From: Candidatus Daviesbacteria bacterium
GTDB taxonomy: Bacteria > Patescibacteriota > Microgenomatia > Daviesbacterales > UBA10151
Length of the DNA stretch: 64,000 bases
NCBI GenBank assembly: GCA_030648645.1
Contig: JAUSHL010000038.1
Location: 3,657 to 67,656, forward strand
Direction: 5' to 3'
The notes below the pieces were generated by a model. It saw only the letters and a program-made list of their open reading frames with translations, was not told the origin of the DNA and ran no database searches. Position 1 is the stretch's first letter, and each line of letters opens with the position of its first letter. Position numbers and translations under genes: made by a program. Below, piece after piece: positions 9,737 to 63,342 of the stretch.

Positions 9737-10093
9737 TTATTGGATTTTATCTTTCACAAAGCTTGTAATTTCTTTAGCAAACTTATAAGCTTCTTCTGAT
9801 TTTTCCTTAGTAAAATGAATAAATTCTGAAAGATCTGGGTAGCGTGAAGGAATGTAATAGGTGTTAAGAGCAACACACTCGTTTCTTAAACTCTCAAAAG
9901 ACTGGTCACTTTTAATACATTCTTCAAGTAGTGCTCTTAAATCGTGAATTTTCTTGATGTCTTTTTCTTGACTAATCAAATAAGCTTTTAGAGCTTTTTC
10001 CACTGCTTGCTGGGATGTAAAACAAGCTCCATACCAAATTTTTCCTTCCAGACTATTTTTGTAACTATTCAGAGTTTCCCAGTAGACTGTCAT
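9737..10093 (-). CDS. HEPN domain protein (toxin component of HEPN/MNT pair)
   Basis: C-terminal YYIPSRYPD motif characteristic of HEPN proteins partnered with minimal nucleotidyltransferases; 118 aa. Confidence 0.6.
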   Translation of the reverse strand: MTVYWETLNSYKNSLEGKIWYGACFTSQQAVEKALKAYLISQEKDIKKIHDLRALLEECIKSDQSFESLRNECVALNTYYIPSRYPDLSEFIHFTKEKSEEAYKFAKEITSFVKDKIQ

Positions 10094-10157
10094 CGCGAGG
10101 GTCGAAACTTCGACCCGTGGCGATCTAATTAGATTGCTTCGCTACGCTCGCAATGAC
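10088..10157. mobile_element. MITE-like GC-rich palindromic element (tgtcatcgcgagg...ctcgcaatgac)
   Basis: Terminal inverted repeats shared with >10 other copies in window; its terminal tgtcat supplies the ATG of the HEPN gene. Confidence 0.6.
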
Positions 10158-10558: not shown

Positions 10559-10585
10559 GAGTACATTGTATCATAAAAAAAAAGG

Positions 10586-11001: not shown

Positions 11002-11003
11002 TC

Positions 11004-11114
11004 TGTCATTCTGAGCACTTCGATGTCATTGCGAGCGAAGTGAAGCAATCTCAGTGTAAACTCAGCGAAGAATCTCTTGAGATTGCTTCTCCGGCTTCGC
11101 CGGATCGCAATGAC
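11004..11114. mobile_element. MITE-like palindromic element between rpmH and rnpA
   Basis: gtcattgcgagcgaagtgaagcaatctc ... gagattgcttctccggcttcgccggatcgcaatgac forms one long imperfect palindrome. Confidence 0.6.
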
Positions 11115-11125
11115 AATAAAATAAA

Positions 11126-11470: not shown

Positions 11471-11562
11471 ATTTTAAATTTTTAATTTTAAATCAATTTT
11501 TAATTTTTAAACATTTAAACATTAGAAATTCATTAGAAATTATTAATTAGAAATTAAAAATT

Positions 11563-12587: not shown

Positions 12588-12600
12588 AGATTTTTGTTGT

Positions 12601-12788
12601 GTCATTGCGATCCGGCGAAGCCGGAGTGGCAATCTTTTCTATCTACAATAAACTAATTTAACTCGTCCGCCAACCGGCGGACTCGTTAAATATTTTGAAC
12701 CCAAAATTTTGATTAAAAGTTGTAGACTGGAGTATTTTGGGTATAGATTGCTTCGTCGTCCGCCAGCTGGCGGACTCCTCGCAATGAC
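12601..12788. mobile_element. composite MITE-like element (gtcattgcga...ctcgcaatgac termini) enclosing a hairpin plus promoter-like module
   Basis: Termini match the MITE family; interior carries atttaactcgtccgccaaccggcggactcgttaaat hairpin and ttgaacccaaaatttt...attttgggtata unit. Confidence 0.5.
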
Positions 12789-12924
12789 AGTAATTTTTTC
12801 TGATTGACTGATCCTAGATTTTCCTTTATACCCACATTACTTTAATGGGTTCAAACTTTTTAATGAGACCGCCAGCTGGCGGTTGCAAAATCGAATTAAA
12901 ATAGTTTATACTTACCTTCATTGT

Positions 12925-13416
12925 ATGGAACAAAAAGTTTCGGAAATTTTAGAAAATATTTTAGGACTCCTGGCCCTTGAGGGTTCATTTGAAGTTGTAG
13001 AAAATCCGGAAGAAGTTAGTGTAACTATTGAAACTACAGACCCGGGAAGGCTGATTGGTTTTAGAGGAGAAACTTTAGATTCTTTACAACTCATTGTAAA
13101 TTTAATTTTAAGCAGACAAATAAGTGATGAGGAAAAGTTTAAAAGAGTAGTGATTGATGTTGAAGGCTGGAGAAAAAATAAGGAAGCAGATTTACAAAGA
13201 AGGGCAGAAGATTGGGGCAAAGAAGTACTGGAAACCGGAAAAGAAATAGAACTTGAACCAATGCCTTCTTGGCAAAGAAGAATTGTACATATGGTAATTT
13301 CAGAAACAAAAGGTGTGGAATCAGAAAGTATGGGAGATGGACGAGATAGACATTTAGTCCTCAGACCGGAAATTACTAAAAAAGAAGTTACCAAAAAAAC
13401 TGCAAAGAAAGAATAA
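12925..13416 (+). CDS. jag: Jag/KhpB-like RNA-binding protein (KH + R3H domains)
   Basis: R3H motif region RRIVHMVISETKGVES...GDGRDRHLVL; classic position after yidC; start moved to ATG 12925 because 12883-12924 lies inside a repeat element. Confidence 0.65.
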   Translation: MEQKVSEILENILGLLALEGSFEVVENPEEVSVTIETTDPGRLIGFRGETLDSLQLIVNLILSRQISDEEKFKRVVIDVEGWRKNKEADLQRRAEDWGKEVLETGKEIELEPMPSWQRRIVHMVISETKGVESESMGDGRDRHLVLRPEITKKEVTKKTAKKE

Positions 13417-18185: not shown

Positions 18186-18317
18186 TGTCATCCCGGACTT
18201 CGTCCAAAGGACGATCAGCCTTTGGCTGATGATCCGGGATCCATGAATTTATTTATATAGATTCCTGCCCCTCGGTCCTGAGTCCCTCGGGATCGAAGGA
18301 CTTTCGCAGGAATGACA
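18186..18317. mobile_element. MITE-like element, subfamily 2 (tgtcatcccgg...caggaatgaca)
   Basis: First 60 bp nearly identical to the copy inside valS at 21304-21388. Confidence 0.6.
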
Positions 18318-19223: not shown

Positions 19224-19751
19224 ATGGAAGGTTATAAAAAGTTGGCAAGCTATATTTTAGCTACAGTGATTCATGATTTAACTGCTATATTTGTTAAACG
19301 TTGGATAAGTCCATATTCCCGGACAACAGATCAAATGGAACAGGCAGCCAGATCCGGTAAACAAAATATTGCCGAAGGGTATACAGTCCAAAGCCTGGAG
19401 AGTTATATAAAACTTTGTGGAGTAGCTGAAGGCTCAATTAAAGAACTGGCAATTGATTTTGAAGATTTTTTAAGACAAAGAGGATATTCTATTTGGGATA
19501 AGAATGATGAAAGAGTTAGGGGATTTAGGGCTTTTAGGGCTGTTTGGAAAATACCTAATATCCCCAATACCCCAAATTTACCTAATAATCCTGAAGAAGC
19601 AGCAAATATGCTTTTAACTTTTTGCCAGATGGAGTCTTTTCTTCTTCATAGGCAAATTGAAGCTTTAAGAAATAAGTTTATTTCAGAGGGTGGTTTTAGA
19701 GAAAATTTATTCAAAGAAAGGTTGATAGAAAAGAAAAAGCAAATTAGATAG
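19224..19751 (+). CDS. four-helix-bundle protein of the 23S rRNA intervening-sequence-encoded family (TIGR02436-like), with C-terminal extension
   Basis: MEGYKKLASYILATVIHDLTAIFVKRW...EQAARSGKQNIAEGY resembles IVS-protein family; here free-standing. Confidence 0.45.
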   Translation: MEGYKKLASYILATVIHDLTAIFVKRWISPYSRTTDQMEQAARSGKQNIAEGYTVQSLESYIKLCGVAEGSIKELAIDFEDFLRQRGYSIWDKNDERVRGFRAFRAVWKIPNIPNTPNLPNNPEEAANMLLTFCQMESFLLHRQIEALRNKFISEGGFRENLFKERLIEKKKQIR

Positions 19752-21996
19752 TTTTTGGCCAATTTTTAGTCATAATAGATTCTCCTGGAGCTATCTTTTG
19801 CCATAACTCTTCTGATAAAAAAGGCATAAAAGGATGGAGGAGCTTTAAGCAGGTTTGGAAAACATATTCTAAAACTGGTTGAGCCTCAGCTCTTCTGTCT
19901 TTGCTTTTTTCAATATAAACATCAGCAAACTTATGCCAGATAAATTCATATAATGTTTCTGTGGCCAGATGAAGCTGGAAGGATTCTAAATTTTTGGTCA
20001 CATCATTAATAGTTTTGTTTAGTTCTTCTAGTATTTTTTTATTATCGATATGAGATTGCTTCTCCGGCAATTGCCGGATCGCAATGACGTCAGTGCCGAG
20101 CGTTGTTGAAATGTCATTGCGAGGAGCCGTAGGCGACGTGGCAATCTCTTTTGGTTTTAGTTCATAAATAAATCTGTAAATATTTTTTATCTTTGTCCCA
20201 AAGTTCCGGTAATTTCTGCATCTTTCATCTATTATTTGTCGGGAGGTTCTGCCATCACGGCCGGGGGCAGAGTAGGAATAGAGTGCCATGCGGGTAGCAT
20301 CTACTCCCCACAGTTGTACCAAATCATAAGGATTAATACCATTGCCTAATGATTTGGAAAACTTTTTTCCATCTATTCCTCTGAGTGTTCCATGGAAAAA
20401 CATGTTTTTAAAAGGAATACTATCCTTAAACCAAAGACTTAACATAATTTGGCGGGCAATCCAAAGGTATTTAATCTCCGGAGCAGTTAGTTCAAAATCC
20501 CAGGGGAAGTATTTTTCCAATTCATCAGATTTGTCAGGTTTACCCTCCGAAGCTTTAGCGGAGGAGGGCCAATTAAGTGTAGATAAGGGCCACATTCCGG
20601 AAGAAAACCAAGTGTCTAAAACTTTCTCTTCCTGCACCCAGTCTTCTCCAGGTGAGTCTTTTGATACTTGTATTTGATTCCCTTTGTACCATATCGGTAT
20701 ACGGTGTCCCCACCAAAGATTGCGTGAGATACACCAATCATGAATTCCACTTAGCCAGTCTCCCAGAATTTTGTCATAGTTTTTGGGTAAAAAGTTGATT
20801 TTATCTAAATTCTTTAAAGCTTTTTCTGCCAATGGTTTCATTTTGATAAACCATTCCTCGGAGATTAAAGGCTCAACAGTAGTTTTGCATCTTTCGCAAA
20901 CAGGGACTGAATGAGTATATTCTTCTACTTTTTCGATTGTTCCATTTTGTTCTAAAATTTCAGCAACTTTTGCTCGGGCCTCGGCAATTTTTAAACCCTG
21001 CAAATCTCCGGCTAGATCAGTCATTTTTCCTAATTTATCAATGGCATGTAAAATCGGAAGGTTATGATCTTTGCCGATGGCAAAGTCCAAAGGATCATGA
21101 CCGGGGGTAATTTTTAAAGCCCCAGTCCCAAAATCTTTTTCAACACGGGTATCTTCAAAAATTGGGATTTGATTATTGTTTAATGGATTGATGGCAAATT
21201 TTCCAATAAATTTGGCAAATTTTGGATGATTGGGAAAAACTGCAATACCGCAATCTGCATAAATTGTTTCCGGACGGGCGGTGGCAATAGTAATAAATTG
21301 ATCTGTCATCCCGTACTTCGTCCAAAAGACGATCAGCCTTTGGCTGATGATACGGGATCCATGGATTCCCGCTTCCGCGGGAATGACATTATTGTTTTGT
21401 ATTTGATATTTAACATAATAAAGCTTTTCTTTTCTTTCCTCATATTCCATTTCCACATCTTCAATGGCAGTGTTGCATTTGGGACACCACTCTACAATAT
21501 AAGCCCCTTTATAAATTAAATCTTGCTCCCACAAAGTTTTAAATTCTACAAAAGTGGCTTGTTGAATTTTGGGATCCAAGGTAAAAACTTCTCTTGACCA
21601 GTCAGCCGAAATACCTAAAAAAGTCCAGGTGTTATGAAAAGAATTATAAATTTTTTCTTTAAATTTCCAAGCCCTTTTCATCCAACTATCATATCCTAAC
21701 TTTTGTTTGGAAAGATTTTCTTTGGCCAGTTCTTTGTTAAAAGTTGATTCAAAAATAATGCCGGCATGATCAACCCCCGGTAATAATAAAACATCAAATC
21801 CTTGCATTCGTTTGAAACGGGCAACTGCATCCAAAATTGATTGTTGCATAGCATGACCGAGGTGCAAATCTCCATTGACATTGGGTGGAGGCATTAAAAG
21901 GGAATAAGGTTTTTTAGAAGACTTAGGATCTGCTTTAAACAGCCCCGCCTTTTCCCAGAAATCATACAATTTTTGTTCTGAAGTTTGTTCATCCAT
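19744..21996 (-). CDS. valS: valine--tRNA ligase (short form) carrying two in-frame repeat-element insertions
   Basis: HIGH-type motif PPPNVNGDLHLGHA, KMSKS-type KFSKSLGN, editing-domain region WCPKCNTAIEDVEME; insertions at 20052-20148 and 21304-21388. Confidence 0.8.
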   Translation of the reverse strand: MDEQTSEQKLYDFWEKAGLFKADPKSSKKPYSLLMPPPNVNGDLHLGHAMQQSILDAVARFKRMQGFDVLLLPGVDHAGIIFESTFNKELAKENLSKQKLGYDSWMKRAWKFKEKIYNSFHNTWTFLGISADWSREVFTLDPKIQQATFVEFKTLWEQDLIYKGAYIVEWCPKCNTAIEDVEMEYEERKEKLYYVKYQIQNNNVIPAEAGIHGSRIISQRLIVFWTKYGMTDQFITIATARPETIYADCGIAVFPNHPKFAKFIGKFAINPLNNNQIPIFEDTRVEKDFGTGALKITPGHDPLDFAIGKDHNLPILHAIDKLGKMTDLAGDLQGLKIAEARAKVAEILEQNGTIEKVEEYTHSVPVCERCKTTVEPLISEEWFIKMKPLAEKALKNLDKINFLPKNYDKILGDWLSGIHDWCISRNLWWGHRIPIWYKGNQIQVSKDSPGEDWVQEEKVLDTWFSSGMWPLSTLNWPSSAKASEGKPDKSDELEKYFPWDFELTAPEIKYLWIARQIMLSLWFKDSIPFKNMFFHGTLRGIDGKKFSKSLGNGINPYDLVQLWGVDATRMALYSYSAPGRDGRTSRQIIDERCRNYRNFGTKIKNIYRFIYELKPKEIATSPTAPRNDISTTLGTDVIAIRQLPEKQSHIDNKKILEELNKTINDVTKNLESFQLHLATETLYEFIWHKFADVYIEKSKDRRAEAQPVLEYVFQTCLKLLHPFMPFLSEELWQKIAPGESIMTKNWPKTI

Positions 21997-22028: not shown

Positions 22029-23348
22029 TCAATCAGAAAGAGAGATGTTAGGGTTTGCTTGTAGTTTGATTGGTTCAATTGGGTGATAGTTGTATAAAGC
22101 ACTAGTTGCAATATAGACAGCATTATCGGTACAAAGCTTGGGGGTAGGAATAGAAATTCGCACATTCATCTTTTTTTGCAAAGATTGTGCCACAAGCTTT
22201 TTGGCAAGAATTTGGTTGGCTGCAACTCCTCCTGCAACCAAAATTTGTTCAACTTTAAATGTTTGGACGGCTTTTAAAGTTTTGGCAACTAAAACATCGG
22301 TGATTGCTTCTTGGATAGAGGCTGAGAGGTTTGATATTTCTTGGGATTGCTTCTCCGGCAATTGCCGGATCGCAATGACATTGTTCTTCTTGTCATCGCG
22401 AGGAGTGTTAACGACGAAGCGATCTCTTGCAATATTTGAAATTGCAGTTTTTAAACCGGAAAAAGAAAAATCCCAGCCATAGGCTGGTCCGCCTTTGGCG
22501 GAAAAATTTCCATTCTCCAGCATTGGTCGGGGTAGTGGATATGCTTTGGGATTTCCTTTTTCTGCCATTTTTGAAATGGACGGACCTCCGGGATAAGGTA
22601 AACCCAGTAGCCTGGCAGATTTATCAAAACATTCACCGGCAGCATCGTCACGGGTTCCACCTAAATATTTATATTTACCATGATCTGTCATTAAAATTAA
22701 ATCTGTATGACCTCCTGAAACAAGAAGACCAATGGCGGGGAAGGTGGGTACTGTAAAATTGTCATTGCGAGGAAGGTCGATACTTCGACCCGGCGCGGCA
22801 ATCTTATTAATTGATTTGGCAGATTGTTTCGCGGAGTTTACGCTGAGATTGCTTCGCTCTGCTCGCAATGACGTCGAAGTGTTCGCAATGACAGGAGAAA
22901 TCCAATTTGCATAAAAATGACCCAGTAAGTGATTCACCGGTATTAATGGTTTATTCCAAACAGTTGCCAGAACTTTAGCAGTTTCTACTCCCACAAGGAG
23001 AGAACCAATTAGCCCCGGACCTTCGGTAACAGCAATGGCATCGATAGATTTTATTATCTCTTTATTGTCATGCTGAACTTGTTTCAGCATCTTGTCTGTG
23101 GATCCCGAAATAAATTCGGGATGACACTTTGCTTGAGTAAGTGCTTCCTGAATGACGGGAATAATGGATTTTAATTGTTCACGGGCTGCCTGTTCCGGGA
23201 TCACACCGCCGAATTTAGCTTGTAACTCAGCCGAGGATGCCACAATATTGGACAATATCGTTACTCGTTTCTCGTCACTCGCCACGATAGCACAAGCTGT
23301 CTCATCACAGGATGACTCAATTCCTAAAATGATACGGGGATTTTTCAT
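22029..23348 (-). CDS. tsaD: tRNA N6-adenosine threonylcarbamoyltransferase TsaD (Kae1/Gcp family) carrying two in-frame repeat-element insertions
   Basis: N-terminus ILGIESSCDETACAIV, HLLGHFYAN and LVSGGHT motifs; 439 aa vs ~340 typical; insertions at 22345-22436 and 22760-22893. Confidence 0.85.
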   Translation of the reverse strand: MKNPRIILGIESSCDETACAIVASDEKRVTILSNIVASSAELQAKFGGVIPEQAAREQLKSIIPVIQEALTQAKCHPEFISGSTDKMLKQVQHDNKEIIKSIDAIAVTEGPGLIGSLLVGVETAKVLATVWNKPLIPVNHLLGHFYANWISPVIANTSTSLRAERSNLSVNSAKQSAKSINKIAAPGRSIDLPRNDNFTVPTFPAIGLLVSGGHTDLILMTDHGKYKYLGGTRDDAAGECFDKSARLLGLPYPGGPSISKMAEKGNPKAYPLPRPMLENGNFSAKGGPAYGWDFSFSGLKTAISNIARDRFVVNTPRDDKKNNVIAIRQLPEKQSQEISNLSASIQEAITDVLVAKTLKAVQTFKVEQILVAGGVAANQILAKKLVAQSLQKKMNVRISIPTPKLCTDNAVYIATSALYNYHPIEPIKLQANPNISLSD

Positions 23349-23863: not shown

Positions 23864-24280
23864 TTAGGTAGAAATTTTAACAGAGTGGGCTTTTAACCAT
23901 TCGGATATTTGTTCCACTGAATAATTTTCATTTACTACTTTTCTTGTAAATTTGACTGCTTCTTTCCTTTTAATTTTTAAGGAATATTTATTATATTCAA
24001 GAAATAAAATAGCACAAAAAAGGGAAGTTCTTTTGTTTCCATCTAAAAAAGGATGGTTATTGATTATAGAATGAAATAAAGATGCACTTTTATCAAAAAT
24101 GGATTTATAAGCATCTTGAAATCCGATTGACATTTGAGGCCTACCTACAGAAGAACTTAATATATGTAAATCCCTTACACCATGAATGCCACCAAATTGA
24201 GACACCAATTCTTCATTGATAGCGATTATTTCTGCCTCAGAAAGATAGTGAATTATTATACTCTTGCCAGATCTTGCCAT
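23864..24280 (-). CDS. doc: Fic/Doc family toxin (death-on-curing)
   Basis: Fic motif HPFLDGNKRTSLF. Confidence 0.75.
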   Translation of the reverse strand: MARSGKSIIIHYLSEAEIIAINEELVSQFGGIHGVRDLHILSSSVGRPQMSIGFQDAYKSIFDKSASLFHSIINNHPFLDGNKRTSLFCAILFLEYNKYSLKIKRKEAVKFTRKVVNENYSVEQISEWLKAHSVKIST

Positions 24281-28203: not shown

Positions 28204-28243
28204 AACGAAAAAATAGAAACTAATTAGTTCTTCTCATAGAGTT

Positions 28244-28322
28244 TGTCATTCCGAGTGCATCCGAGGAATCTTCCGTCTTAAGCGGGAAGATTGCCACGCT
28301 CACTATGTTCGCTCGCAATGAC
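28244..28322. mobile_element. MITE-like element (tgtcattccgag...ctcgcaatgac)
   Basis: Termini match the MITE family. Confidence 0.55.
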
Positions 28323-28360
28323 ATTAATGGGAAATACTAAATAGTTGCCAAAATAGGTAT

Positions 28361-28627: not shown

Positions 28628-29038
28628 ATGATTATTGATAGTAATATTTTAATCTATGCAATTAACTCCGACTCTCCCAAAAACAAAAAAGCTCAGGAAT
28701 TTTTAAGAGAGAATTTAAAAAATTTAGAAGTTACTCATCAAAATATATTAGAAACTCTAAGAGTTTTAACCCATCCGAAATTTTCCAAAAAAATGAAATC
28801 ACAAGATGCTCTAGAATCAATTACAGGTATAATAAGAGTTGCCAGAATTATCCAGCCCAGATATGAAACCTATTATGTATTTTTGGAGTTACTAAAAAAA
28901 CACCAGTTTGGGGGAGATAAAATTTTTGATATATATCTTATAGCTACAGCTTTAAGTAATAATATTGAGACAATAGCTACAGATAATACAAAAGATTTTA
29001 TAAAATTCAAGGAGATCAAGACAATAAATCCTTTTTAG
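28628..29038 (+). CDS. vapC: PIN-domain ribonuclease toxin VapC
   Basis: MIIDSNILIYAIN... conserved acidic residues of PIN fold. Confidence 0.75.
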   Translation: MIIDSNILIYAINSDSPKNKKAQEFLRENLKNLEVTHQNILETLRVLTHPKFSKKMKSQDALESITGIIRVARIIQPRYETYYVFLELLKKHQFGGDKIFDIYLIATALSNNIETIATDNTKDFIKFKEIKTINPF

Positions 29039-29321: not shown

Positions 29322-29730
29322 ATATCGAAAAATTAATTTATCATCTCCATTTGCTCGTAACAAATATCTTTTAAGACCAATAATTCCGGTAAGTTTAAAT
29401 TATAAAAATCATGCGATTCATTATGAAGCTTTGATTGATTCCGGCGCAGATTTTAGTATTTTTCCCATAGAAATTGCCCAGAAACTGGGTGTTAATTTAA
29501 AGAAGAAAGATGGTATTTGTTTTTCTGGCTTGGGAGAAGAATTTATAGAGGGATTTAAAAGTAAAATTATTTTAAGAATAGATAAATTGGAGTTTAAAAC
29601 CAATGTGGTCTTTGCAGATTTAAGTGGCAAAAGTGGCATTTTAGGACAGAATGGATTTTTTGATTTATATAAGGTTAAATTTAGTTTACTACAAAAAGAA
29701 ATAGAAATAACTCCTTACAAAATTAATTAA
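29311..29730 (+). CDS. retropepsin-like (clan AA) aspartic peptidase
   Basis: ALIDSGADFSIFP contains the D-S/T-G-A catalytic signature; 139 aa single-lobe size. Confidence 0.55.
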   Translation: MIFKYRKINLSSPFARNKYLLRPIIPVSLNYKNHAIHYEALIDSGADFSIFPIEIAQKLGVNLKKKDGICFSGLGEEFIEGFKSKIILRIDKLEFKTNVVFADLSGKSGILGQNGFFDLYKVKFSLLQKEIEITPYKIN

Positions 29731-30313
29731 GGGGTATTTCGGCAATAGTGTTGTGTTTATGAAATCCTTCTTCCGGAATTGATTCAAAAAGTTTAACAGA
29801 GGTAATATTGATTGATTCAAAATCTTCTTTTACTGCCATTTCCTGTAATTTTTTTTCCTGTTCTTCTGATAAAAAATAATTACTGACTTTACCAATCGCA
29901 ATGTGAGGAACATACCTCCTTTCATCAGTATTCAAACCCAATTTAGCAATTCCATCTTTAATTCGTTCACGTAGAACAAACAATTTATCAATATCACCCT
30001 TAACTCCCACCCAGAAAGTGTCAGGATTGTGCAGATTAGGAAAAGCATCAATATAAGCAGGAATGATGGAAAAAGGGGAAATTCCAGATACAGCTTCTTT
30101 GATAATACTGGTAAAATCATCAATCATTTTTTCAGATTGCTCACCAATAAAAGCAATAGTCAGGTGCAGTTTTTCATTATTGGTCAGACGGACTTCAGGC
30201 ACAATCTGTTGCAGATCTTTTTGCACAGCTTTTAAAGACTCTCTGCAGCTATCGGGAATTTCTAAAGCAATGAAAAATCTCATATTATTGTTTAGACGAT
30301 TTTTCCAGTGCAA
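29723..30313 (-). CDS. thpR: RNA 2',3'-cyclic phosphodiesterase / 2'-5' RNA ligase (2H phosphoesterase, LigT/ThpR)
   Basis: Two H-x-T/S-x motifs: HLTIAF and HIAIGK. Confidence 0.7.
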   Translation of the reverse strand: MHWKNRLNNNMRFFIALEIPDSCRESLKAVQKDLQQIVPEVRLTNNEKLHLTIAFIGEQSEKMIDDFTSIIKEAVSGISPFSIIPAYIDAFPNLHNPDTFWVGVKGDIDKLFVLRERIKDGIAKLGLNTDERRYVPHIAIGKVSNYFLSEEQEKKLQEMAVKEDFESINITSVKLFESIPEEGFHKHNTIAEIPLN

Positions 30314-30821: not shown

Positions 30822-31187
30822 TCAAGAATTAGTTTCTAGATGTGATTTATAATCATTCAGTCTATTAATGGCAGTTTTTATCTCTCTTGTATCAGTTTTT
30901 TGCTTCTTTTTTTGGAAAGCATGGAGCAATAAAAATTGTCGATTCACTACTGCTACATAAAAGATTCTAATATTGTCACTCCCAAGAATACGAAGTTCCC
31001 ATAAGGGTGTGCCTATTAATTTCTTTGAGTGGGGAGAACCAATTAAGGTACCAAGTTGTTTTAACAAATCCATAACACCTATGACTTTGGATTTAATTTT
31101 AGGATCAAGATTTTGGATAAATTCAAAAGCAGGGGAGCTACCTTGAGAAGTTTCGTAATAGATAATTTTCCATTTCTGATCCATCAA
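30822..31187 (-). CDS. RelE/ParE-superfamily toxin, HigB/phage Gp49-like, upstream of its antitoxin
   Basis: Size, position (toxin-first arrangement), weak similarity to HigB-like proteins. Confidence 0.5.
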   Translation of the reverse strand: MMDQKWKIIYYETSQGSSPAFEFIQNLDPKIKSKVIGVMDLLKQLGTLIGSPHSKKLIGTPLWELRILGSDNIRIFYVAVVNRQFLLLHAFQKKKQKTDTREIKTAINRLNDYKSHLETNS

Positions 31188-35723: not shown

Positions 35724-35734
35724 AACATATGCAG

Positions 35735-35835
35735 TACCAATTTAGTGGACGACCCGCCGGCTAACGCCTGAGCGCCCGCCCGCTTCGATATGCGAAGCAT
35801 TTCGTGCAGGTAGCGATGGCGGGCAGGTCGCATCA
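35735..35835. other. GC-rich (~65%) nested-hairpin element between convergent genes; candidate structured ncRNA or MITE
   Basis: Outer stem taccaatt/aattggta, inner GC stems (gacgacccgccgg / cggcgggcaggtcgc, gcttcg-atat-gcgaagc). Confidence 0.4.
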
Positions 35836-36558
35836 TGAATTGGTATGGAAAACACGTTTAGTAAATTTTTTAAAAATTCTCAATTGATCAGTGTTTGTTT
35901 GAAGATATAAATTCATTATATTGTCTACTCTCAAAATTATTTCTGCTGTGGCAGGATTTTTATTGGAAATACTATTATTTAACTCATAATATAAAGTTGC
36001 AGTTGGATTATTGGGTTTTATATTTAACATGGTGTATCTGAAATATCCTGTTTTATCTACAGAAATAAAATTATGAATTTTTTCATTTCTTTGTCTGTAA
36101 TCTAAAGGTTTTTTATCAAAACTTATTTCCAGCTTGTTTATATCCGGATCAGAAATATAATAAGTAATTTGTAATATTTCATCATTTATTTTTATTTCGC
36201 GTTGATAGGCAAAAGGGTTTGGTTTTGTTGTTTTTTTATCCTGTAATAATTTATCAATAATTAATTGTCTTAAAGTTTTGATTCTATTGAAGGTTTGCAG
36301 TTTTTCAGCATCTATAATATTTTGTTGTTCTTGGAGAACCGTTTTTTCTTCGAAGGTTTCAAGAAATGTACTTACGGGAACATTGGTATCTAAACACAAC
36401 CATGTTTCAACTTGTTCAATAATTTTTGTATAGGCAGTTATCGGGGTATAGGGTTGACCAATGGAGGTAGAAAATCGTTTACTTTCAACTAAAACTTCCA
36501 GATATTTTAATCTGTCATTAAAAGTTGGTTGACCAGTTGTTTCTTTTTCCTGCAACAT
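35833..36558 (-). CDS. hypothetical protein
   Basis: ORF track only; last codons lie inside the GC-rich element. Confidence 0.3.
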   Translation of the reverse strand: MLQEKETTGQPTFNDRLKYLEVLVESKRFSTSIGQPYTPITAYTKIIEQVETWLCLDTNVPVSTFLETFEEKTVLQEQQNIIDAEKLQTFNRIKTLRQLIIDKLLQDKKTTKPNPFAYQREIKINDEILQITYYISDPDINKLEISFDKKPLDYRQRNEKIHNFISVDKTGYFRYTMLNIKPNNPTATLYYELNNSISNKNPATAEIILRVDNIMNLYLQTNTDQLRIFKKFTKRVFHTNS

Positions 36559-39205: not shown

Positions 39206-39535
39206 ATGGTAAAAAAAATAACTAGAACCTATAACCTAGAACCTAAAACCTCAGTCAAACCATTGGCAGGTTATGTTTTAATAGAACCTGCTGAAGCGGA
39301 AACTAAAACTTCTTCAGGTATAATCCTTCCGGAAAATGCTCAGGAAAAACCCAGTTTGGGAACAGTTTTAGCTTGTGGAGAAAGTTTGATCTTAGAAAAT
39401 GGCAAAACTATTGGATCCCCAGTCAAACCTGGGGACAAGGTTTATTTTAAAAAATGGGGCAGTGATGATATTAAAATTGAAGGAAAGGAATTAAAATTAG
39501 TCAAATTTGATGATCTGATGGCTATCGTTGAGTGA
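39206..39535 (+). CDS. groES: co-chaperonin GroES
   Basis: ...KPLAGYVLIEPAEAETKTSSGIILPENAQEKPSLGTVLACG... Confidence 0.85.
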   Translation: MVKKITRTYNLEPKTSVKPLAGYVLIEPAEAETKTSSGIILPENAQEKPSLGTVLACGESLILENGKTIGSPVKPGDKVYFKKWGSDDIKIEGKELKLVKFDDLMAIVE

Positions 39536-39554
39536 AGTTGACCCGCCTCTGGCG

Positions 39555-39704
39555 AGGTCATCCTGAGCGTAGTCGAAGGATTGATGACTTAATGGCAATA
39601 GTGGAGTGAGATTGCTTCTCCGCCAGTTGGCGGATCGCAATGACGCCAGCACTGAGTGTAGTTGAAGTGTCATTGCGAGGAGCCGAAGGCGACGTGGCAA
39701 TCTA
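39555..39704. mobile_element. MITE-like element immediately downstream of groES
   Basis: gaggtcatcctgagcg ... gagattgcttctccgccagttggcggatcgcaatgac ... gtcattgcgaggagccgaaggcgacgtggcaatct. Confidence 0.6.
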
Positions 39705-40880: not shown

Positions 40881-42518
40881 ATGGCTAAAATATTGAAATT
40901 TGATAGTGAAGCAAGAGAGAAATTATTAAAAGGGATTAATATCCTGACTGAGGCTGTGGCTTCAACACTGGGACCCAAGGGAAGAAATGTTGCCATAGAT
41001 CGCAAATGGGGTGCTCCCAATGTGGTCCATGACGGAGTAACTGTTGCCAAAGAAATTGAACTGGAAGATCCATTTGAAAATATGGGGGCTCAACTGATTA
41101 AGGAAGCAGCCTCCAAAACCAATGATGTGGCAGGAGATGGAACCACCACTGCTACTATTTTGGCTCAAGCCATTGTGGCAGAAGGCTTAAAAAATATTCA
41201 GGCCGGAGCCAATCCAATGATTTTGCGACACGGTATTGAAAAGGCAGTTGATATTTTAGTTGAGGAATTGAAGAAAATGAGCAAAAAACTTACTCTGCCT
41301 TCAGAAATTACTCAGGTTGCCACTATTTCTGCTCAGGATGAAGTAATCGGTAAAATAATTTCTGATGCTATTTCCCGGGTTGGTAAAGATGGAGTAATTA
41401 CAGTTGAGGAGGGAAAAACTATGGAAATGAGCGTTGATTATAAGGAAGGTATGGAATTTGAAAAAGGCTATGCTTCTCCTTATTTTGTCACTGACACTGA
41501 TAAGATGGAATCTTCTATTGAAGATGCTCACATCTTAATTACTGATAAGAAAATCTCCAATATGGCCGAACTTTTGCCTTTCCTGGAAAAGTTTGTCCAA
41601 GTTTCGAAAAATTTAGTCATTATTGCTGATGAGATTGAGGGAGAAGCCTTAACTACATTGGTGGTTAATAAACTTCGGGGAGTATTTAATGTTTTGGCAG
41701 TAGGAGCACCAGGGTTTGGCGATCGAAGAAAAGAAATGCTTTCCGATATTGCTATTTTAACTGGTGGAACAATAATTTCCGAAGATACCGGCCGAAAACT
41801 TGATTCAGTTGAAGTGACTGATTTAGGTAGAGCTGGAAGAGTCACCTCTTCCAAAGATACAACTTTAATTGTTGATGGAAAAGGATCAAAGAGTAAAATT
41901 GATGCCCGAGTTTTGCAAATAAGAAAAGAACTGGAAAATTCTGATTCAGAATTTGATAAAGAAAAACTGGCTGAAAGATTGGCAAAACTTACCGGTGGAG
42001 TAGCAGTGATAAATGTGGGAGCAGCAACTGAGGTGGAAATGAAAGAGAAAAAAGAAAGAGTGATTGATGCAGTGGCTGCCACTAAAGCTGCCATTGAAGA
42101 AGGAATTGTGGCTGGAGGAGAGATTGCTTTACTTAGAGTAGTCTCAGTTTTAGATAAAACAAAAGCTGACCCTTCAACAGGCTCAGGGCAAGAGGAAAAA
42201 GTGGGAGTGGAAATTATCAAAAAAGCGATTGAACAGCCCTTTAGAAGATTAATGAGTAATGCCGGTTTTGATCCAGGGGTAATGCTTGCTAAAGTTTTAG
42301 AATCTGCAGGGAATATGGGGATAGATGTGTTGGATGGTAGTGTGAAAGATTTAGTCAAAGCAGGTATTATTGATCCGGTTAAAGTTACCAGAACAGCTTT
42401 GCAAAATGCCTCATCGGTGGCTATTATGGTGATGAGTACTAATTGTTTAATTACAGATTTACCGGAGAAAAATTCTCCAGCCATGCCCCAAATCCCTCAG
42501 GGAATGGGTGAATATTAA
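40881..42518 (+). CDS. groEL: chaperonin GroEL
   Basis: MAKILKFDSEAREKLLKGINILTEAVASTLGPKGRNV...AGDGTTTATILAQAIV; 545 aa. Confidence 0.95.
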   Translation: MAKILKFDSEAREKLLKGINILTEAVASTLGPKGRNVAIDRKWGAPNVVHDGVTVAKEIELEDPFENMGAQLIKEAASKTNDVAGDGTTTATILAQAIVAEGLKNIQAGANPMILRHGIEKAVDILVEELKKMSKKLTLPSEITQVATISAQDEVIGKIISDAISRVGKDGVITVEEGKTMEMSVDYKEGMEFEKGYASPYFVTDTDKMESSIEDAHILITDKKISNMAELLPFLEKFVQVSKNLVIIADEIEGEALTTLVVNKLRGVFNVLAVGAPGFGDRRKEMLSDIAILTGGTIISEDTGRKLDSVEVTDLGRAGRVTSSKDTTLIVDGKGSKSKIDARVLQIRKELENSDSEFDKEKLAERLAKLTGGVAVINVGAATEVEMKEKKERVIDAVAATKAAIEEGIVAGGEIALLRVVSVLDKTKADPSTGSGQEEKVGVEIIKKAIEQPFRRLMSNAGFDPGVMLAKVLESAGNMGIDVLDGSVKDLVKAGIIDPVKVTRTALQNASSVAIMVMSTNCLITDLPEKNSPAMPQIPQGMGEY

Positions 42519-50457: not shown

Positions 50458-50583
50458 TTTTTATGGCAAGTTAGTTAATTATATCCAAAACACTCGCTTA
50501 ATCAAAGTTTTGGATTCAAGCTATTTAACGAGACCGCCAGCTGGCGGTTGCAAATTCGAGTTAAATTAGCTTATACTTAAAAT

Positions 50584-60476: not shown

Positions 60477-61262
60477 TTATTTCTTCTGCCAACCAGTAAT
60501 GACATGATTTTTAAATCTTCGGGGGTCGAAAATTTCTAAAATATCTGTTTTTTGAAATTTAGTTTTTAAATATTTTTCCAATTCAAATCCACCATTTCTT
60601 GATTCTTGATTATGAGCAGGTCTGTTAAAAATAATCATGCCATCATTTTTTAAAAATGGCATAATTTTTTCAATAAAGTTTGGCTGATTAGAATTTAAAG
60701 AAACATAGGGTGGTTGCCCGGTAAAAATATCAACAATTATAATATCGAATAAAGAATTAAGAATAAAGAATTTAGAATAAGCGGAGCTTGCGAGCAGATG
60801 CTCTTTAAGAATCTGAAATGCGTCAGCTTTTAAAATCTGATAATTGGGTAATTGATCCAGATTAAAATATTTTCGGCAGGCTTCAATTATAAATTTATCT
60901 ATTTCAATAATAGTCTGAAGAATTTTGGGATTTTTTTGAGCAATTAAACTAGGAATAGTGTTTGCCCCTAATCCCAAAAGTAGTACTTGGCTATTCTTCC
61001 TTGAAGAACAAAATTTAACTACTAATTCTGCTACGGTGAACCAATAACTTTTTTCGATACTTTGATCTTTAATGGAAACTCCCTGAGGATATGAATTTAT
61101 CGTTAAAACTTTTTCTTTATTATATTTTTCAAAAACTTCAATTTTTCCCAAAATAAGGGATTTATAAATTGCTATTTTTTTTAACCGGAGTCTCCAATAA
61201 AAAAATAACAAAATTGGAATTAATATTAAAGTAAAAATTATTAAGGTAAAATTTTGCTGCAT
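60477..61262 (-). CDS. membrane-anchored spermidine-synthase-like / class I methyltransferase-fold protein
   Basis: N-terminal TM; LLLGLGANT glycine-rich motif, IIIVDIF acidic motif. Confidence 0.4.
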   Translation of the reverse strand: MQQNFTLIIFTLILIPILLFFYWRLRLKKIAIYKSLILGKIEVFEKYNKEKVLTINSYPQGVSIKDQSIEKSYWFTVAELVVKFCSSRKNSQVLLLGLGANTIPSLIAQKNPKILQTIIEIDKFIIEACRKYFNLDQLPNYQILKADAFQILKEHLLASSAYSKFFILNSLFDIIIVDIFTGQPPYVSLNSNQPNFIEKIMPFLKNDGMIIFNRPAHNQESRNGGFELEKYLKTKFQKTDILEIFDPRRFKNHVITGWQKK

Positions 61263-62173
61263 AAATATAATAACTTATAAACCGGATTATAAATTTTTAT
61301 AAAAGATCCGGGATATTCAATGACATTACCATGAAATCTTTTTTTGAACTCAGAAAAATTTTTCCATGATTTTCTCTCTTTCGGAAATCTTGGATCATAA
61401 ATTCCTTCAAAATCAAAAATAGGCAATTTTTTACTTTTGGCAAATTTAATACTTTCCCAAACCAATAAATAATTTGCTAAGGTTTCATAGCCTACTTTGG
61501 TAATACCTGTGTTCATATAAACAGCCCGATCTTCTAAAATTCCCAGCCAAACAGCTGCGACGGGTTGAGAAGATTGCTTCTCCGGCTTTCGCCGGATCGC
61601 AATGACATTATGATAGGCAAATAAAATATATGAAGAGTTTTTAAAAGCCATCATTTTTTTATGAAATTCGGAATGTCCCGGAATATAAAATTTTTTTAAA
61701 TGAGTTAAATTAGATAAAAGAGAATAAAATTTTTTAAATTGTAAATCACGGTCGCTATCTTTTAATGAAATTATTTTAATTTCTAAATTATTATTTTGCG
61801 CCTTTTTAATATTTCTTCTGGCATTTTCGGAAAATCCGGATAAAATTTTATTCTCTGATTTATTTATATCAATATAAATTGTTGAAGTGTGAGTGAGAGA
61901 GCTTTTCGATCGAACATATCCATTTTTTAAAACAGCTTCTTTATTAAAGTTATTTTTATCCGGTTCTAAAATTACAAATAAAGAATGATGCTTTTTGGCA
62001 AATTTATCAATTTCGGAAAATGATAAATTATTTTGAGGATGTTGAATTTTAATAACTGAATATTTTAAAAATGGTAAATTTCGAATAAAGACCCGAGAGT
62101 TTCCGATTTTTTCTACTTTCCAGCCAATTGAAGATAAATAATCTCCCCATTCTTTTGATTGTCTGATGTCCAT
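61241..62173 (-). CDS. FemAB-family peptidoglycan aminoacyltransferase-like protein carrying an in-frame repeat half-element
   Basis: FemAB-like N-terminus ...SKEWGDYLSSIGW...; VAIRRKPEKQSS encoded by MITE half-copy 61572-61616. Confidence 0.5.
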   Translation of the reverse strand: MDIRQSKEWGDYLSSIGWKVEKIGNSRVFIRNLPFLKYSVIKIQHPQNNLSFSEIDKFAKKHHSLFVILEPDKNNFNKEAVLKNGYVRSKSSLTHTSTIYIDINKSENKILSGFSENARRNIKKAQNNNLEIKIISLKDSDRDLQFKKFYSLLSNLTHLKKFYIPGHSEFHKKMMAFKNSSYILFAYHNVIAIRRKPEKQSSQPVAAVWLGILEDRAVYMNTGITKVGYETLANYLLVWESIKFAKSKKLPIFDFEGIYDPRFPKERKSWKNFSEFKKRFHGNVIEYPGSFIKIYNPVYKLLYLCSKILP

Positions 62174-62244
62174 AAAAAATTTCTAATTTCTAATTTCTAA
62201 TTTCTAATAAGCGAAGCTTGAAAACTCAGTTTTCAAGCAAGCTT

Positions 62245-63342
62245 TCAAACTTCGTTTATTAACCTAAGAAGTAATAATTTTAGTGGCATAAATTTTTCAA
62301 CTATATTAAATAAAATATAAATTGGCCAATTTAAAATTAAATCATAAGTTCCAATATATTCTATAAGTTCGGCACCCAACCCTCCTTTAAATTTAGTAAA
62401 TCCAAAATAAGAATCTTTTTCTCCTTTACTGAGATCTGCTGCTCCCCAAAGATCAAATTTTTTTAATCCCAATTTTTTACCCAATCTGATGGCATCCCAA
62501 GCCAATAAATTAGATGACATTACATTACGGTGTAATTCTGATGAGCCACCATAAGGATAATATAATGTATCTTTAAAATTTATTAACATCCAAGCGGTTA
62601 AAGGAATTTTTTCATAATAAGCAACTAATACTCTAACCATATTTTCTTTTTTCAGAGATTGCCAGACTGATTTGTGATAACTCATATTGTGTCCATGATA
62701 GCCTTGTCGTTTGGTAGTATCGAAATATAATTTTATGTAATCTGCAAAAAGCTGATCATCTGTGCCTTCTTTGATTATGACTTCATGTTTTTTTGCTACC
62801 TTGATGTTATATCTAAATTTTTGATGCATGTTTTGTAAAATTTCATCTTCGGATTTGGTTAAATCTAAAACATAATTGAATTTGGTAAAAAGTGGTTTAG
62901 GCGATGGTTTAAATTTTTTTGATATCAATGTGTTGTCATTGCGAGGAGCTCCGGCAGAGCCGGACGACGAAGCAATCTCTGTTTCAGATTGCTTCTCCGG
63001 CAATTGCCGGATCGCAATGACATCAGGTTCAATCTTAATGAAGGCACAATTATTTTCTTTGCCAATTTGTGTTAGGGCTTTGGCCAAATTTTTATCAGGA
63101 AATGGGCCTTTTGGTAAATATCCTACAAAATATTTTGTCAGAGGAATTTTATGAAAAGTAATTTGAAAAGCAGTTACTAATTGATTATTTTCAAAAAGAC
63201 CATATCTTTTTAATTTTGTATCCAAACTTTTTCTAAACTGCCCCCAAGCCCATGATTGCATGAGATGAGATACTGATTTATTGTAAATATTTTTTTCTTT
63301 TTCAGTAATTTCTCGCAAGTCCATAGCTGAATTATATATCAA
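62245..63342 (-). CDS. FemAB-family peptidoglycan aminoacyltransferase (FemX-like) carrying an in-frame repeat element
   Basis: ...HLMQSWAWGQFRKS...YLPKGPF... FemAB signature; insertion PDVIAIRQLPEKQSETEIASSSGSAGAPRNDNTLIS from 62934-63021. Confidence 0.6.
   Translation of the reverse strand: MIYNSAMDLREITEKEKNIYNKSVSHLMQSWAWGQFRKSLDTKLKRYGLFENNQLVTAFQITFHKIPLTKYFVGYLPKGPFPDKNLAKALTQIGKENNCAFIKIEPDVIAIRQLPEKQSETEIASSSGSAGAPRNDNTLISKKFKPSPKPLFTKFNYVLDLTKSEDEILQNMHQKFRYNIKVAKKHEVIIKEGTDDQLFADYIKLYFDTTKRQGYHGHNMSYHKSVWQSLKKENMVRVLVAYYEKIPLTAWMLINFKDTLYYPYGGSSELHRNVMSSNLLAWDAIRLGKKLGLKKFDLWGAADLSKGEKDSYFGFTKFKGGLGAELIEYIGTYDLILNWPIYILFNIVEKFMPLKLLLLRLINEV

Follow-up and report, generated by a model that had tools for sequence, protein, structure and literature searches.

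How does one short palindrome come to lie in frame in two neighbouring genes, and is it the hairpin or the encoded peptide that is conserved? The question arises in a 64-kb stretch of Daviesbacteria DNA (the window, by which we mean the whole stretch analysed), where the initial annotation had reported the same repeat in both genes of a FemAB-family pair. Both elements are present where reported, with small corrections, and both genes match Pfam PF02388; the FemX (tandem-GNAT) fold was checked in the second, FemAB2, whose structure model aligns with FemX 6snr at a TM of 0.77 and with W. viridescens FemX at a TM of 0.69-0.79.

The repeat in the two FemAB genes

The features of the FemAB region are as follows.

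61241..62173, minus strand: FemAB1 host gene, 310 aa; Pfam PF02388, E = 4.6e-17; orthologues mostly 299-302 aa
61572..61606, minus strand: single REP unit in FemAB1, 35 nt (GTCATTGCGATCCGGCGAAAGCCGGAGAAGCAATC), in frame, encoding VIAIRRKPEKQS (residues 190-201)
62245..63342, minus strand: FemAB2 host gene, 365 aa (annotated protein 359 aa); Pfam PF02388, E = 9.5e-32, plus Acetyltransf_6
62935..62977, plus strand: second half of the FemAB2 dimer, 43 nt, with a different inner hairpin, read antisense as EIASSSGSAGAPRND
62978..62986, minus strand: 9-nt spacer of the FemAB2 dimer, the loop of its long hairpin
62987..63021, minus strand: first half of the FemAB2 dimer, the 35-mer 'master' copy, encoding VIAIRQLPEKQS, with GTC read as a codon

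The FemAB1 unit, which reads GATTGCTTCTCCGGCTTTCGCCGGATCGCAATGAC on the plus strand, is 35 nt long, so that the element first placed at 61572-61616 keeps its start and ends at 61606. Its peptide on the coding (minus) strand is V-I-A-I-R-R-K-P-E-K-Q-S, as originally given apart from the first I, which had been left out. The unit folds at -18 kcal/mol (z = -5.5) and in the protein model occupies a loop between strands 181-188 and 206-213, with a pLDDT of 44 over residues 191-200. It is carried only by the window and the two closest orthologues (85% and 79% identity), while orthologues at 65-77% identity lack it and have a 30-36 nt gap instead. No target-site duplication could be read from filled and empty FemAB1 sites, since even the closest sequence with an empty site has no more than 75% identity.

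The FemAB2 insert (62935-63021) is an 87-nt inverted dimer, made of the 43-nt unit, the 9-nt spacer and the 35-mer, that encodes VIAIRQLPEKQSETEIASSSGSAGAPRND in frame and folds at -51.5 kcal/mol (z = -8.4). The 'full' element reported at 62934-63021 thus exists with a start at 62935, and the two forms that had been called 'half' and 'full' are real, being in fact a REP singleton and a REP heterodimer. Orthologues of FemAB2 range from 331 to 371 aa and vary in length only between the motifs IKIEPD and SPKPLFTK. At this site they carry different GTCAT...ATGAC dimers encoding quite different peptides, and in one orthologue (L128) the site is empty. Residues 108-136 of the FemAB2 model, and likewise the stretch counted as 111-140, have a pLDDT of 40-54, the whole-protein mean being 88.5; mapped on the models of both FemAB proteins, the insertion sites fall in low-confidence loops. 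A small ORF at 62876-63154 is spurious and is produced by the repeats.

Anatomy and copy number of the repeat unit

Five copies of the 35-mer GTCATTGCGATCCGGCAATTGCCGGAGAAGCAATC occur in the window at three or fewer mismatches (0 in 100 shuffles), and its terminal decamer TCGCAATGAC, allowing one mismatch, occurs 22 times versus 1.7 expected. These belong to a wider family with several stem types and a variable interior, which amounts to 25 hairpin units in the 64 kb (29 matches in a pattern search of the window versus 3.0 in shuffles), and is more than a single 34-mer family. Each unit has the unpaired tag YGTC at one end and a C at its 3' end; between them, an outer stem leads through a small internal loop to an inner hairpin that is GC-rich and variable. 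All 25 units start GTC-AT... and end ...AT-C, and the base before GTC is a pyrimidine in every one (TGTC in 21, CGTC in four). The C that follows the stem is likewise invariant, with variable bases after it (TCT, TTT, CCG, TCA and others). In the FemAB units the outer stem is ATTGC/GCAAT, its first pairs being A-T and then T-A, and the fold has a 5-bp outer and a 6-bp inner helix, separated by a 2x3 internal loop and closed by a loop of 4 nt. Plain 8-bp stems are found in units 21364-21387 (4-nt loop), 23067-23091 and 23101-23125 (5-nt loops). Units span 24-57 nt and have a GC content of 44-63%, versus 34% for the window.

The 25 units are distributed over 13 places, 12 of which hold inverted dimers of 59-188 nt, nearly all of them heterodimers. 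The ends of the dimers are inverted (GTCAT...ATGAC or GATTGC...GCAATC), and the heterodimers can fold into one long hairpin. About half of the units lie outside genes, whereas 13 of the 25 are in frame, spread over four genes (ValRS, TsaD and the two FemAB genes), and genes and spacers alike contain units in either orientation. Identical 35-mers are present in three genes, at 20054-20088 (ValRS), 22345-22379 (TsaD) and 62987-63021 (FemAB2). In addition, a 93-nt composite dimer with a similar spacer is common to ValRS (20054-20146) and an intergenic place (39610-39702). The identical 35-mers and the repeated composite point to recent spread.

Three classes of element with comparable features were considered and dismissed. 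The repeats lack the regular spacing of CRISPR repeats and the R''/R' motifs of integron attC sites, and their internal loop is 2x3, not the 3-nt bulge with tandem G-A pairs of a K-turn.

Copies in ValRS, TsaD and intergenic places

Outside the FemAB pair, in-gene copies fall in the ValRS gene (19744-21996) and the adjacent TsaD gene (22029-23348).

20054..20146: ValRS REP dimer, 93 nt, tags facing inward, in frame (KEIATSPTAPRNDISTTLGTDVIAIRQLPEKQS); residues additional to those of T. thermophilus ValRS 1gax
21305..21387: second ValRS REP dimer, encoding VIPAEAGIHGSRIISQRLIVFWTKYGMT; one unit (GTCATTCCCGCGGAAGCGGGAATC) with the stem of Neisseria dRS3
22345..22424: TsaD insertion 3, REP dimer; residues 310-338 without counterpart in the solved TsaD 8iey
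22761..22892: TsaD insertion 2, REP dimer plus partial third unit; residues 151-202 without counterpart in 8iey
23067..23125: TsaD insertion 1, REP dimer, 8-bp stems, 5-nt loops; residues 79-95 without counterpart in 8iey
10089..10157: intergenic REP heterodimer; ATCGC/GCGAT stem, a compensatory variant
11025..11114: intergenic REP dimer
12601..12788: REP dimer in the interval between yidC and jag; spacer of 111 nt
18187..18316: intergenic dimer whose REP units are long (55 and 57 nt), with stems ATCCC and ATTCC
28245..28322: intergenic REP heterodimer; stems ATTCC/GGAAT and ATTGC/GCAAT
39610..39702: intergenic 93-nt dimer, tags inward, after groES; holds the fifth 35-mer copy (39610-39644)

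Four different proteins had been credited with the motif, and these are ValRS, TsaD, FemAB1 and FemAB2, the fifth 35-mer copy being intergenic. Judging from orthologue gaps and from solved structures that have no counterpart, the in-gene copies are insertions. For instance, the ValRS dimer at 21305-21387 corresponds to 31 residues inserted between positions 207 and 209 of 1gax. In ValRS, TsaD and both FemAB proteins, the loops that hold the copies connect conserved secondary-structure elements. Presence and absence among orthologues, together with the multiple copies, bear out the view that the element behaves as inserted, dispersed DNA.

All seven in-gene places, in four genes, keep the frame and contain no stop codon, and no gene in the window is split by an out-of-frame unit. 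These facts weigh on a reading in which the inserts are cut from the RNA as intervening sequences and the ends rejoined, leaving proteins without the peptides. Long perfect dimer hairpins with inverted ends do recall rRNA intervening sequences, and the window encodes both a '23S rRNA intervening sequence protein' homologue (19224-19751) and a LigT-type RNA ligase (29723-30313). An excised sequence, however, would need no frame, and the open frames, kept at seven of seven in-gene places and in the T9SS-domain copies of other genomes described below, argue against excision, as does the absence from the window of any gene split out of frame. Nor is the rejoining of mRNA in this way an established process in bacteria. 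Of the readings weighed here, we give excision the smallest chance.

Hairpin constraint and codon-register bias

Substitutions in the stems are strongly coordinated. In the outer stem, full compensation is seen for 18 of 34 variant 5' arms, versus 1.2 expected by permutation (maximum of six in 5000 permutations), with ATCGC/GCGAT and ATTCC/GGAAT among the compensated variants of ATTGC/GCAAT. The two unconstrained pairs of the inner stem are CG in 19 cases, GC in five, UA in four and UG in three, a pattern whose score was not equalled in any of 500 shuffles. Folding z-scores of the elements range from -3.6 to -8.4. The excess of compensatory change called for as a check is therefore found in both stems, and the covariation identifies the hairpin as the conserved feature. 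The one example originally offered does not belong to it: in the change of caattg to ctttcg the stem CCGGC/GCCGG stays the same, and the difference is confined to the 4-nt loop, where plus-strand AATT is replaced by TTTC (coding-strand GAAA). That stem does have a genuinely compensated variant, CCGCC/GGCGG, which forms the inner stem of the dimer at 39610-39702.

The peptides follow a different pattern. One unit read in its two orientations gives different peptides, the antisense one (..APRND) being unrelated. Sense copies show a marked register bias: of 12 long ORFs, 11 read them in one and the same codon register, with the tag triplet GTC/GAC as a codon. The resulting peptide is common to T9SS sorting domains and to ValRS, TsaD, FemAB1 and FemAB2. 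Stop codons cannot be the cause of the bias, since none of the three sense frames contains one. The shared register and the recurrence of one peptide in unrelated host proteins are what would be expected if selection acted on the peptide, as a loop or linker module (VIAIRQLPEKQS...) used repeatedly to give its hosts some property. We think this very improbable. About half of the units lie outside genes, antisense units yield the unrelated peptide, orthologues have unrelated peptides or none at the FemAB2 site, nucleotide changes follow base pairing and not codons, and the modelled segments are low-confidence loops. The proposal that constraint acts on the hairpin rather than on the peptide is thus upheld by stems that covary and by peptides that differ with orientation and orthologue.

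A conserved hairpin might serve as a functional mRNA structure, slowing ribosomes at domain boundaries, stabilising the transcript or offering a site for RNase III or other processing. The coding-strand RNA is indeed very stable, as the energy of the FemAB2 dimer illustrates (-51.5 kcal/mol, z = -8.4), the stems covary, the inserts lie between structural elements of the proteins, and many REPs have been argued to act as RNA elements (Di Nocera et al.; PMC3733652). Such a role, which we rate as improbable, sits poorly with the presence of both orientations in genes and spacers and with G-T wobbles that show no strand preference, although the imperfect stems are few. Nor does it fit a FemAB2 site that is empty in some orthologues and filled by unrelated dimers in others, or a FemAB1 unit gained only recently. 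A terminator scan of the FemAB region found no terminator and no terminator-like tail, and Rfam returned nothing relevant either at the gathering threshold or at E <= 1.

Occurrence in other genomes and search for a mobiliser

The repeat was found in at least 115 stretches of other genomes, with nearly unchanged sequence in Bacteroidota, Omnitrophota, Gammaproteobacteria MAGs and others. In-frame copies with open frames occur there in T9SS sorting domains. When ORFs within 400 bp of 126 copies (115 loci) were clustered, no recurrent neighbour gene emerged. In particular, the four-helix-bundle homologue of the 23S rRNA intervening sequence protein seen in the window is not recurrent near other copies, and for that reason a cargo-gene link was dropped.

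No transposase was recognised among the 37 ORFs of the window that were scanned, a set that leaves out about 26 ORFs at 34-57 kb. A first RAYT motif pattern gave 0 matches; a second, taken from published HuH/Y motifs, picked up a single Y1_Tnp gene, located in L030, which is unflanked by units and is the only RAYT-like gene within about 4 kb of the 126 copies. This gene and its Collierbacteria homologue were rejected as mobilisers, being tied to GTAG hairpins and not to the YGTC family. Indeed, wherever a Y1 (RAYT-like) gene turned up in a CPR relative, one example being L129 2501-3055, the hairpins within or beside it were GTAG-tagged and not YGTC-tagged. Scanning the window for GTAG- or GTGG-tagged hairpins gave only AT-rich chance matches, none of them GC-rich. 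A query with an unconfirmed E. coli RayT sequence returned 0 matches, a result of little weight.

Hairpins without a transposase of their own could instead be recognition or target sites for another mobile system and not themselves mobile, a role that is compatible with the explanation preferred below. There is precedent, since dRS3, a member of the same superfamily, is the site for Neisseria filamentous prophages, and GTAG REPs are targets for IS1111/IS110-type elements, one of them for IS1111 in Coxiella. A target role, though, leaves identical copies and presence or absence among orthologues unexplained; no IS or prophage is seen inserted in any of the 25 units, and the pattern occurs in none of 2.9 million viral contigs scanned. 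We see slightly less chance in it than in the selected peptide. Full-text searches of the literature with the decamer GTCATTGCGA retrieved unrelated primers only, and those on CPR and extragenic palindromic repeats retrieved an incidental mention only.

A probable family of tolerated mobile hairpins

Taken together, the repeat is probably a REP-type hairpin family of the CGTC/TGTC-tagged superfamily, selfish and non-autonomous DNA whose in-gene copies are tolerated. Units would spread as hairpins of single-stranded DNA with the help of an enzyme that acts in trans and whose gene does not lie beside them, a role for which an HUH/Y1 (RAYT-like) transposase is the leading, as yet unproven, candidate. 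The copies now seen in genes would be the ones that selection has spared, being of a length and register that left the frame open and having a peptide that does no harm in a surface loop. Given their open frames, translation of the inserts is probable and would yield loop extensions that are neutral or nearly so. A loop that has acquired a dimer may be overwritable by other members of the family, through re-insertion or through conversion via the GTCAT...ATGAC ends, which would explain the different dimers at one FemAB2 site across orthologues.

The superfamily and its intragenic copies are already known. What looks new is the CPR (Daviesbacteria) host, the near-unchanged sequence across phyla and the marked codon-register bias; the last two are not predicted by a simple picture of species-specific selfish REPs. 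It is conceivable, though we lean against it, that one YGTC family, down to identical 35-nt copies, is now active in CPR Microgenomates, in Bacteroidota and other T9SS bacteria, in Omnitrophota and in some Gammaproteobacteria MAGs, without a transposase of its own and entering genes preferentially in one register. If so, it would be either a horizontally spreading 'orphan' ssDNA hairpin or one copied by a widely conserved host enzyme, and the surface loops of essential and secreted proteins would be systematically remodelled.

Palindromic repeats inside genes had so far been an oddity of Rickettsia and of a handful of species rich in REPs. A REP class is now seen densely in essential enzymes (ValRS, TsaD and two cell-wall FemAB transferases) of a reduced CPR genome, with a single site re-usable by different family members. 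For annotation, these repeats account for many length differences and 'low-complexity' loops of CPR proteins and for many spurious small ORFs. Sharing across phyla also offers a handle on the question, posed in 2013, of what mobilises CGTC REPs, as co-occurring genes become searchable over hundreds of genomes.

Relation to known systems

The initial annotation did not connect the repeat with the CGTC/TGTC-tagged REPs, a class already on record and known to have copies inside genes. Di Nocera, De Gregorio and Rocco (2013) defined these by an unpaired CGTC (or TGTC/CCTC) at one end of a palindrome (PMC3733652). The class has a stem with A-T/T-A first pairs and a short unpaired 3' tail of consensus CCA, and includes intragenic copies that encode 20-30 residues, in tRNA synthetase genes among others; its families CGTC-1 to -4 have an 8-9 bp stem and a 4-5 nt loop (PMC3733652). 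The Daviesbacteria repeat shares the YGTC tag, the AT-starting stem and the short GC-rich hairpin; it is likewise dispersed and multi-copy, found mostly as inverted dimers and often as heterodimers, with in-gene copies and without a known dedicated transposase. It differs in the two-tier stem and 26-57 nt length of units such as those in FemAB, versus the plain 8-9 bp of the four described families (into whose stem and loop sizes the three units with plain 8-bp stems do fall), and in a 3' tail of C plus variable bases instead of CCA. Its CPR/Patescibacteria host is not among the five phyla of the 2013 census, and its sequence is nearly unchanged across phyla. Bulged or unusual classes were missed by that census, according to its authors (PMC3733652).

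Rickettsia RPEs are also palindromes lying in frame in unrelated housekeeping genes, presumed translated with function kept. Those of the RPE-1 type, however, are about 150 bp long and confined to Rickettsia, whereas the present units measure 24-57 nt and occur in a free-living-type CPR genome. RPE-4 has been assigned to CGTC-4 and RPE-6 to CGTC-1, and Neisseria dRS3 is a further superfamily member (PMC3733652); the kinship of the Daviesbacteria units with RPEs runs through this RPE-4/6 assignment and not through sequence comparison.

The resemblance to dRS3 is more direct. The ValRS unit at 21364-21387 (GTCATTCCCGCGGAAGCGGGAATC) has the stem ATTCCCGC/GCGGGAAT of dRS3 (ATTCCCGCGCAGGCGGGAATC), as does one FemAB2 orthologue (L127, GTCATTCCCGCGCACGCGGGAATC), and both systems use an inverted-pair layout. 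Unlike dRS3, the FemAB units have the ATTGC stem, and the Neisseria repeats are intergenic. Bertels and Rainey regard the dRS3/NIME repeats as REPINs that belong to a Group 2 RAYT (bioRxiv 10.1101/2021.07.10.451892), whereas no RAYT flanked by YGTC units was found among the window ORFs scanned or in the roughly 4 kb around 126 copies.

With the GTAG REP/REPIN-RAYT systems of E. coli and Pseudomonas, finally, the repeat has in common a short unpaired 5' tag, inverted doublets and non-autonomy, and its dimer arrangement resembles, by analogy, that of a REPIN. In the TnpA_REP classes of Quentin et al. (2018), too, REP copies can lie inside genes, even in tnpA_REP itself (PMC6006769). The tag, however, is YGTC and not 5' GT[AG]G, and while REPIN sequences are described as lineage-specific, the YGTC repeat crosses phyla.

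Hairpin units in the window

The window belongs to a Candidatus Daviesbacteria genome (CPR/Microgenomates), and its FemAB2 protein is 100% identical to one listed under that name at NCBI. It has exact copies of the 35-mer GATTGCTTCTCCGGCAATTGCCGGATCGCAATGAC at 20054, 22345 and 62987, and copies differing in three bases at 39610 and 61572; 100 shuffles of the window gave zero matches. The copy at 39610-39644 is intergenic; the others lie in four genes.

19744-21996, ValRS
22029-23348, TsaD
61241-62173 (-), FemAB1
62245-63342 (-), FemAB2

Direct reading of 61572-61606 and 62935-63021 confirmed the repeat sequences given in the initial annotation. Translation of the coding (-) strand gives VIAIRRKPEKQS for the FemAB1 copy and VIAIRQLPEKQSETEIASSSGSAGAPRND for the FemAB2 element.

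With GC at 34% across the window, a scan requiring nothing but GTCAT and a complementary 5-nt arm returned 29 matches versus 3.0 in shuffles. Discarding AT-rich chance matches left 25 units at 13 places, with the common form 5'-(Y)GTC-AT NNN ... NNN' AT-C-3' and a GC-rich variable interior of 24-57 nt. A pyrimidine precedes GTC in all 25 (T 21, C 4). Inverted pairs, nearly all heterodimers of two different units, occupy 12 of the 13 places, with tags outward in nine and inward in three; the sole singleton is the FemAB1 copy. The tags-inward dimers 20054-20146 and 39610-39702 have 16 of 24 spacer bases in common, so that the whole dimer recurs as a composite. Folding gives one long hairpin for the FemAB2 dimer (-51.5 kcal/mol, z = -8.4) and -18 kcal/mol (z = -5.5) for a single unit.

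Elsewhere, the REP dimers in 10060-10190 and 28215-28350 each lie between imperfect inverted arms some 27 nt long, with AACTAATTAGTTCTTC present at 10169-10184 (-) and 28218-28233 (+); this arrangement suggests that a REP dimer forms the core of a larger composite element. A second GC-rich hairpin repeat, GAGACCGCCAGCTGGCGGTTGCAAA(A/T)TCGA at 12864-12895 and 50528-50562, shares the CCGCCAGCTGGCGG palindrome with the inner stems of numerous REP units and has no GTCAT tag. GC-rich stretches at 16253-16331, 17875-17925, 39525-39610 and 42165-42196, within or beside genes and with motifs like ..AQDDLARGG.. and ..SGQG.., look like further repeat families other than the YGTC units.

Covariation of the stems

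The hairpin is under selection. An outer-stem search that fixed only GTCAT..GA and ..ATC, leaving the three variable positions in each arm unconstrained, recovered 206 distinct units from the window and the loci fetched from other genomes and metagenomes, versus 2 in a reversed-sequence control. The 5' arm is other than TGC in 34 units, and a fully complementary 3' arm accompanies it in 18 of these (CGC/GCG 11, CAC/GTG 3, CCC/GGG 2, plus others); 5000 permutation trials averaged 1.2 such units and never gave more than 6. Among 34 distinct 35-mers, the only two inner-stem pairs that the search pattern left free were CG 19, GC 5, UA 4, UG 3 and other 3 for the first, and CG 29, UA 2, UG 1 and other 2 for the second; the covariation score was attained in 0 of 500 shuffles.

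The initial annotation had read the element as structured and proposed comparing stem substitutions with chance. Compensation is indeed in excess, and the structural reading holds in substance, but the example cited for it does not: CCGGCAATTGCCGG and CCGGCTTTCGCCGG keep the stem CCGGC/GCCGG and differ in the 4-nt loop alone. A genuine compensatory change in this stem does occur at 39610 (CCGCC...GGCGG).

Insertions in the host proteins

Twelve extra residues set the window's FemAB1 and the two orthologues nearest to it (85% and 79% identity) apart from the next ones (65-77% identity, 299-301 aa), which show a clean 30-36 nt gap at the DNA level. In the 85% relative the unit, with ATC for GTC and GCAACC for GCAATC, is in decay already. 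FemAB2 ranges from 331 to 371 aa across 35 orthologues, with variation confined between IKIEPD and SPKPLFTK. Comparison of the DNA of five orthologues with the window gave the following contents.

Content of the FemAB2 site
Window: ATTGC/ATTGC dimer
L118: partial ATTCT unit and ATTGC/ATTGC dimer
L126: ATCCT/ATTCT dimer
L127: dRS3-like ATTCCCGC unit and ATCCCGG unit
L116: remnant without tag
L128: empty

The FemAB2 model (mean pLDDT 88.5; match to FemX 6snr, TM 0.77) has ten-residue blocks averaging pLDDT 40-54 at residues 111-140, between strands 99-112 and 144-146. In that of FemAB1 (mean pLDDT 83), loop 189-205 lies between two strands at pLDDT 44. Both models thus show the inserts as floppy loops, with the fold left intact. 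TsaD has three segments without counterpart in solved TsaD (residues 79-95, 151-202 and 310-338). In ValRS, an extra 31 residues fall between positions 207 and 209 of the T. thermophilus enzyme, and a second segment precedes the anticodon-binding domain.

The stop-free REP dimer also holds open a 92-aa ORF opposite FemAB2 (62876-63154 (+), ..SLRGAPAEPDDEAISVSDCFSGNCRIAMT..), an example of the spurious ORFs that REP repeats make. Overlapping the ValRS stop codon is a four-helix-bundle '23S rRNA intervening sequence protein' homologue (19224-19751 (+); PF05635, 31.8 bits, just under cutoff), with no recurrence beside REP copies elsewhere among the matches listed.

Sense 35-mers within long ORFs read GTC as a codon in 4/4 window genes, 4/5 genome loci and 3/3 type IX secretion (T9SS) genes, and antisense units in the window end ...CGC AAT GAC in five of six cases. 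Since all three sense frames are open, the bias is not due to stop codons; it may come from peptide tolerance or from target choice.

Occurrence beyond the window

At least 115 stretches of species-representative genomes match GTCATTGCGATCCG-N6-10-CGGAGAAGCAATC; a scan of 2.9 million viral contigs gave no match. Among the matches listed, hosts include cultured Bacteroidota (Mucilaginibacter, Algoriphagus, Maribellus, Planktosalinus and others), many CPR lineages, Omnitrophota, PVC, WOR-3, Nitrospirae and some Gammaproteobacteria MAGs. Loci from Bacteroidia, Microgenomates and Gammaproteobacteria MAGs share 35-mers that are identical even in the loop. Seven metagenome loci have the window's own variant; in four of them (L119, L121, L122 and L124; three distinct genes) the exact 35-mer lies in frame between strands one and two of the type IX secretion C-terminal sorting domain (PF18962), in non-CPR organisms of 35% GC. 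Worth follow-up are this identity across phyla, the bias in register and the re-use of one site in FemAB2.

Mobilisation

A Pfam scan of 37 window ORFs found no transposase, and no recurrent gene adjoins the copies among the matches listed. One Y1_Tnp gene occurs in L030 (2397-2909; Pfam E = 3.5e-10), a locus labelled Pseudomonadales with synteny matching Collierbacteria; among its homologues is a Collierbacteria protein whose secDF-linked synteny is conserved. In CPR-type genomes, this gene and the one in L129 (2501-3140), both RAYT-like Y1 transposase genes, are found downstream of secDF. The former contains one GTAG-tagged hairpin (GTAGGGGCGATTCACGAATCGCCC) and two directly follow the latter (GTAGGGGTTTCATTTATGAAACCC); hairpins within or after the L030 and Collierbacteria genes are GTAG-tagged, not YGTC. 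The L030 and L129 genes are a separate GTAG REP/RAYT system, and genomes with it may contain YGTC REPs as well. CGTC-tagged REPs have no known dedicated transposase (Di Nocera et al. 2013, PMC3733652), and our searches agree with that conclusion that they are transposase orphans. Our best guess, tentative and on balance doubtful, would be that a RAYT-like enzyme cross-mobilises them.

Other features of the window

5170-13416, replication-origin neighbourhood: dnaN 5170-6270 (-), dnaA 7125-8459 (-), yidC 11754-12587 (+), jag/KhpB 12883-13416 (+)
10089-10157, 11025-11114 and 12601-12788, REP dimers inside that neighbourhood
8648-9298 (+), DUF3800 protein gene, followed at 9302-9428 (-) by the DUF3800-III RNA motif RF02962 (52 bits versus cutoff 43.8)
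35731-35844, 114-nt GC-rich island, intergenic or gene-end, with no Rfam match at gathering threshold; may be an unannotated structured RNA
9737-10558, 23864-24280, 28628-29038, 30822-31187 and 1249-2988, toxin-antitoxin or mobile-type genes (HEPN/MNT pair whose two genes are separated by a REP dimer, Fic, PIN, Gp49-like toxin, TraG/VirB4-like ATPase)

Relation to known repeat families

Palindromic insertions in frame have their classic example in the RPEs. CGTC-tagged REPs, known from several phyla, are mostly inverted dimers, often heterodimers; their intragenic copies encode 20-30 residues, tRNA synthetase genes included, and named members are Neisseria dRS3 and Rickettsia RPE-4/RPE-6 (Di Nocera et al. 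2013, PMC3733652). Bertels and Rainey (bioRxiv 10.1101/2021.07.10.451892) treated dRS3 (ATTCCCGCGCAGGCGGGAATC) as the REPIN of a Group 2 RAYT. The anatomy of the window units matches that of the CGTC-tagged REP superfamily, and the dRS3 stem is also present in the ValRS unit GTCATTCCCGCGGAAGCGGGAATC. Because of their two-tier stem, however, the FemAB units are filed as a further member rather than under the four described families, CGTC-1 to -4. The repeat is real and well defined, and adds both a new member and a new host phylum to an established class of hairpin repeats able to reside in genes.
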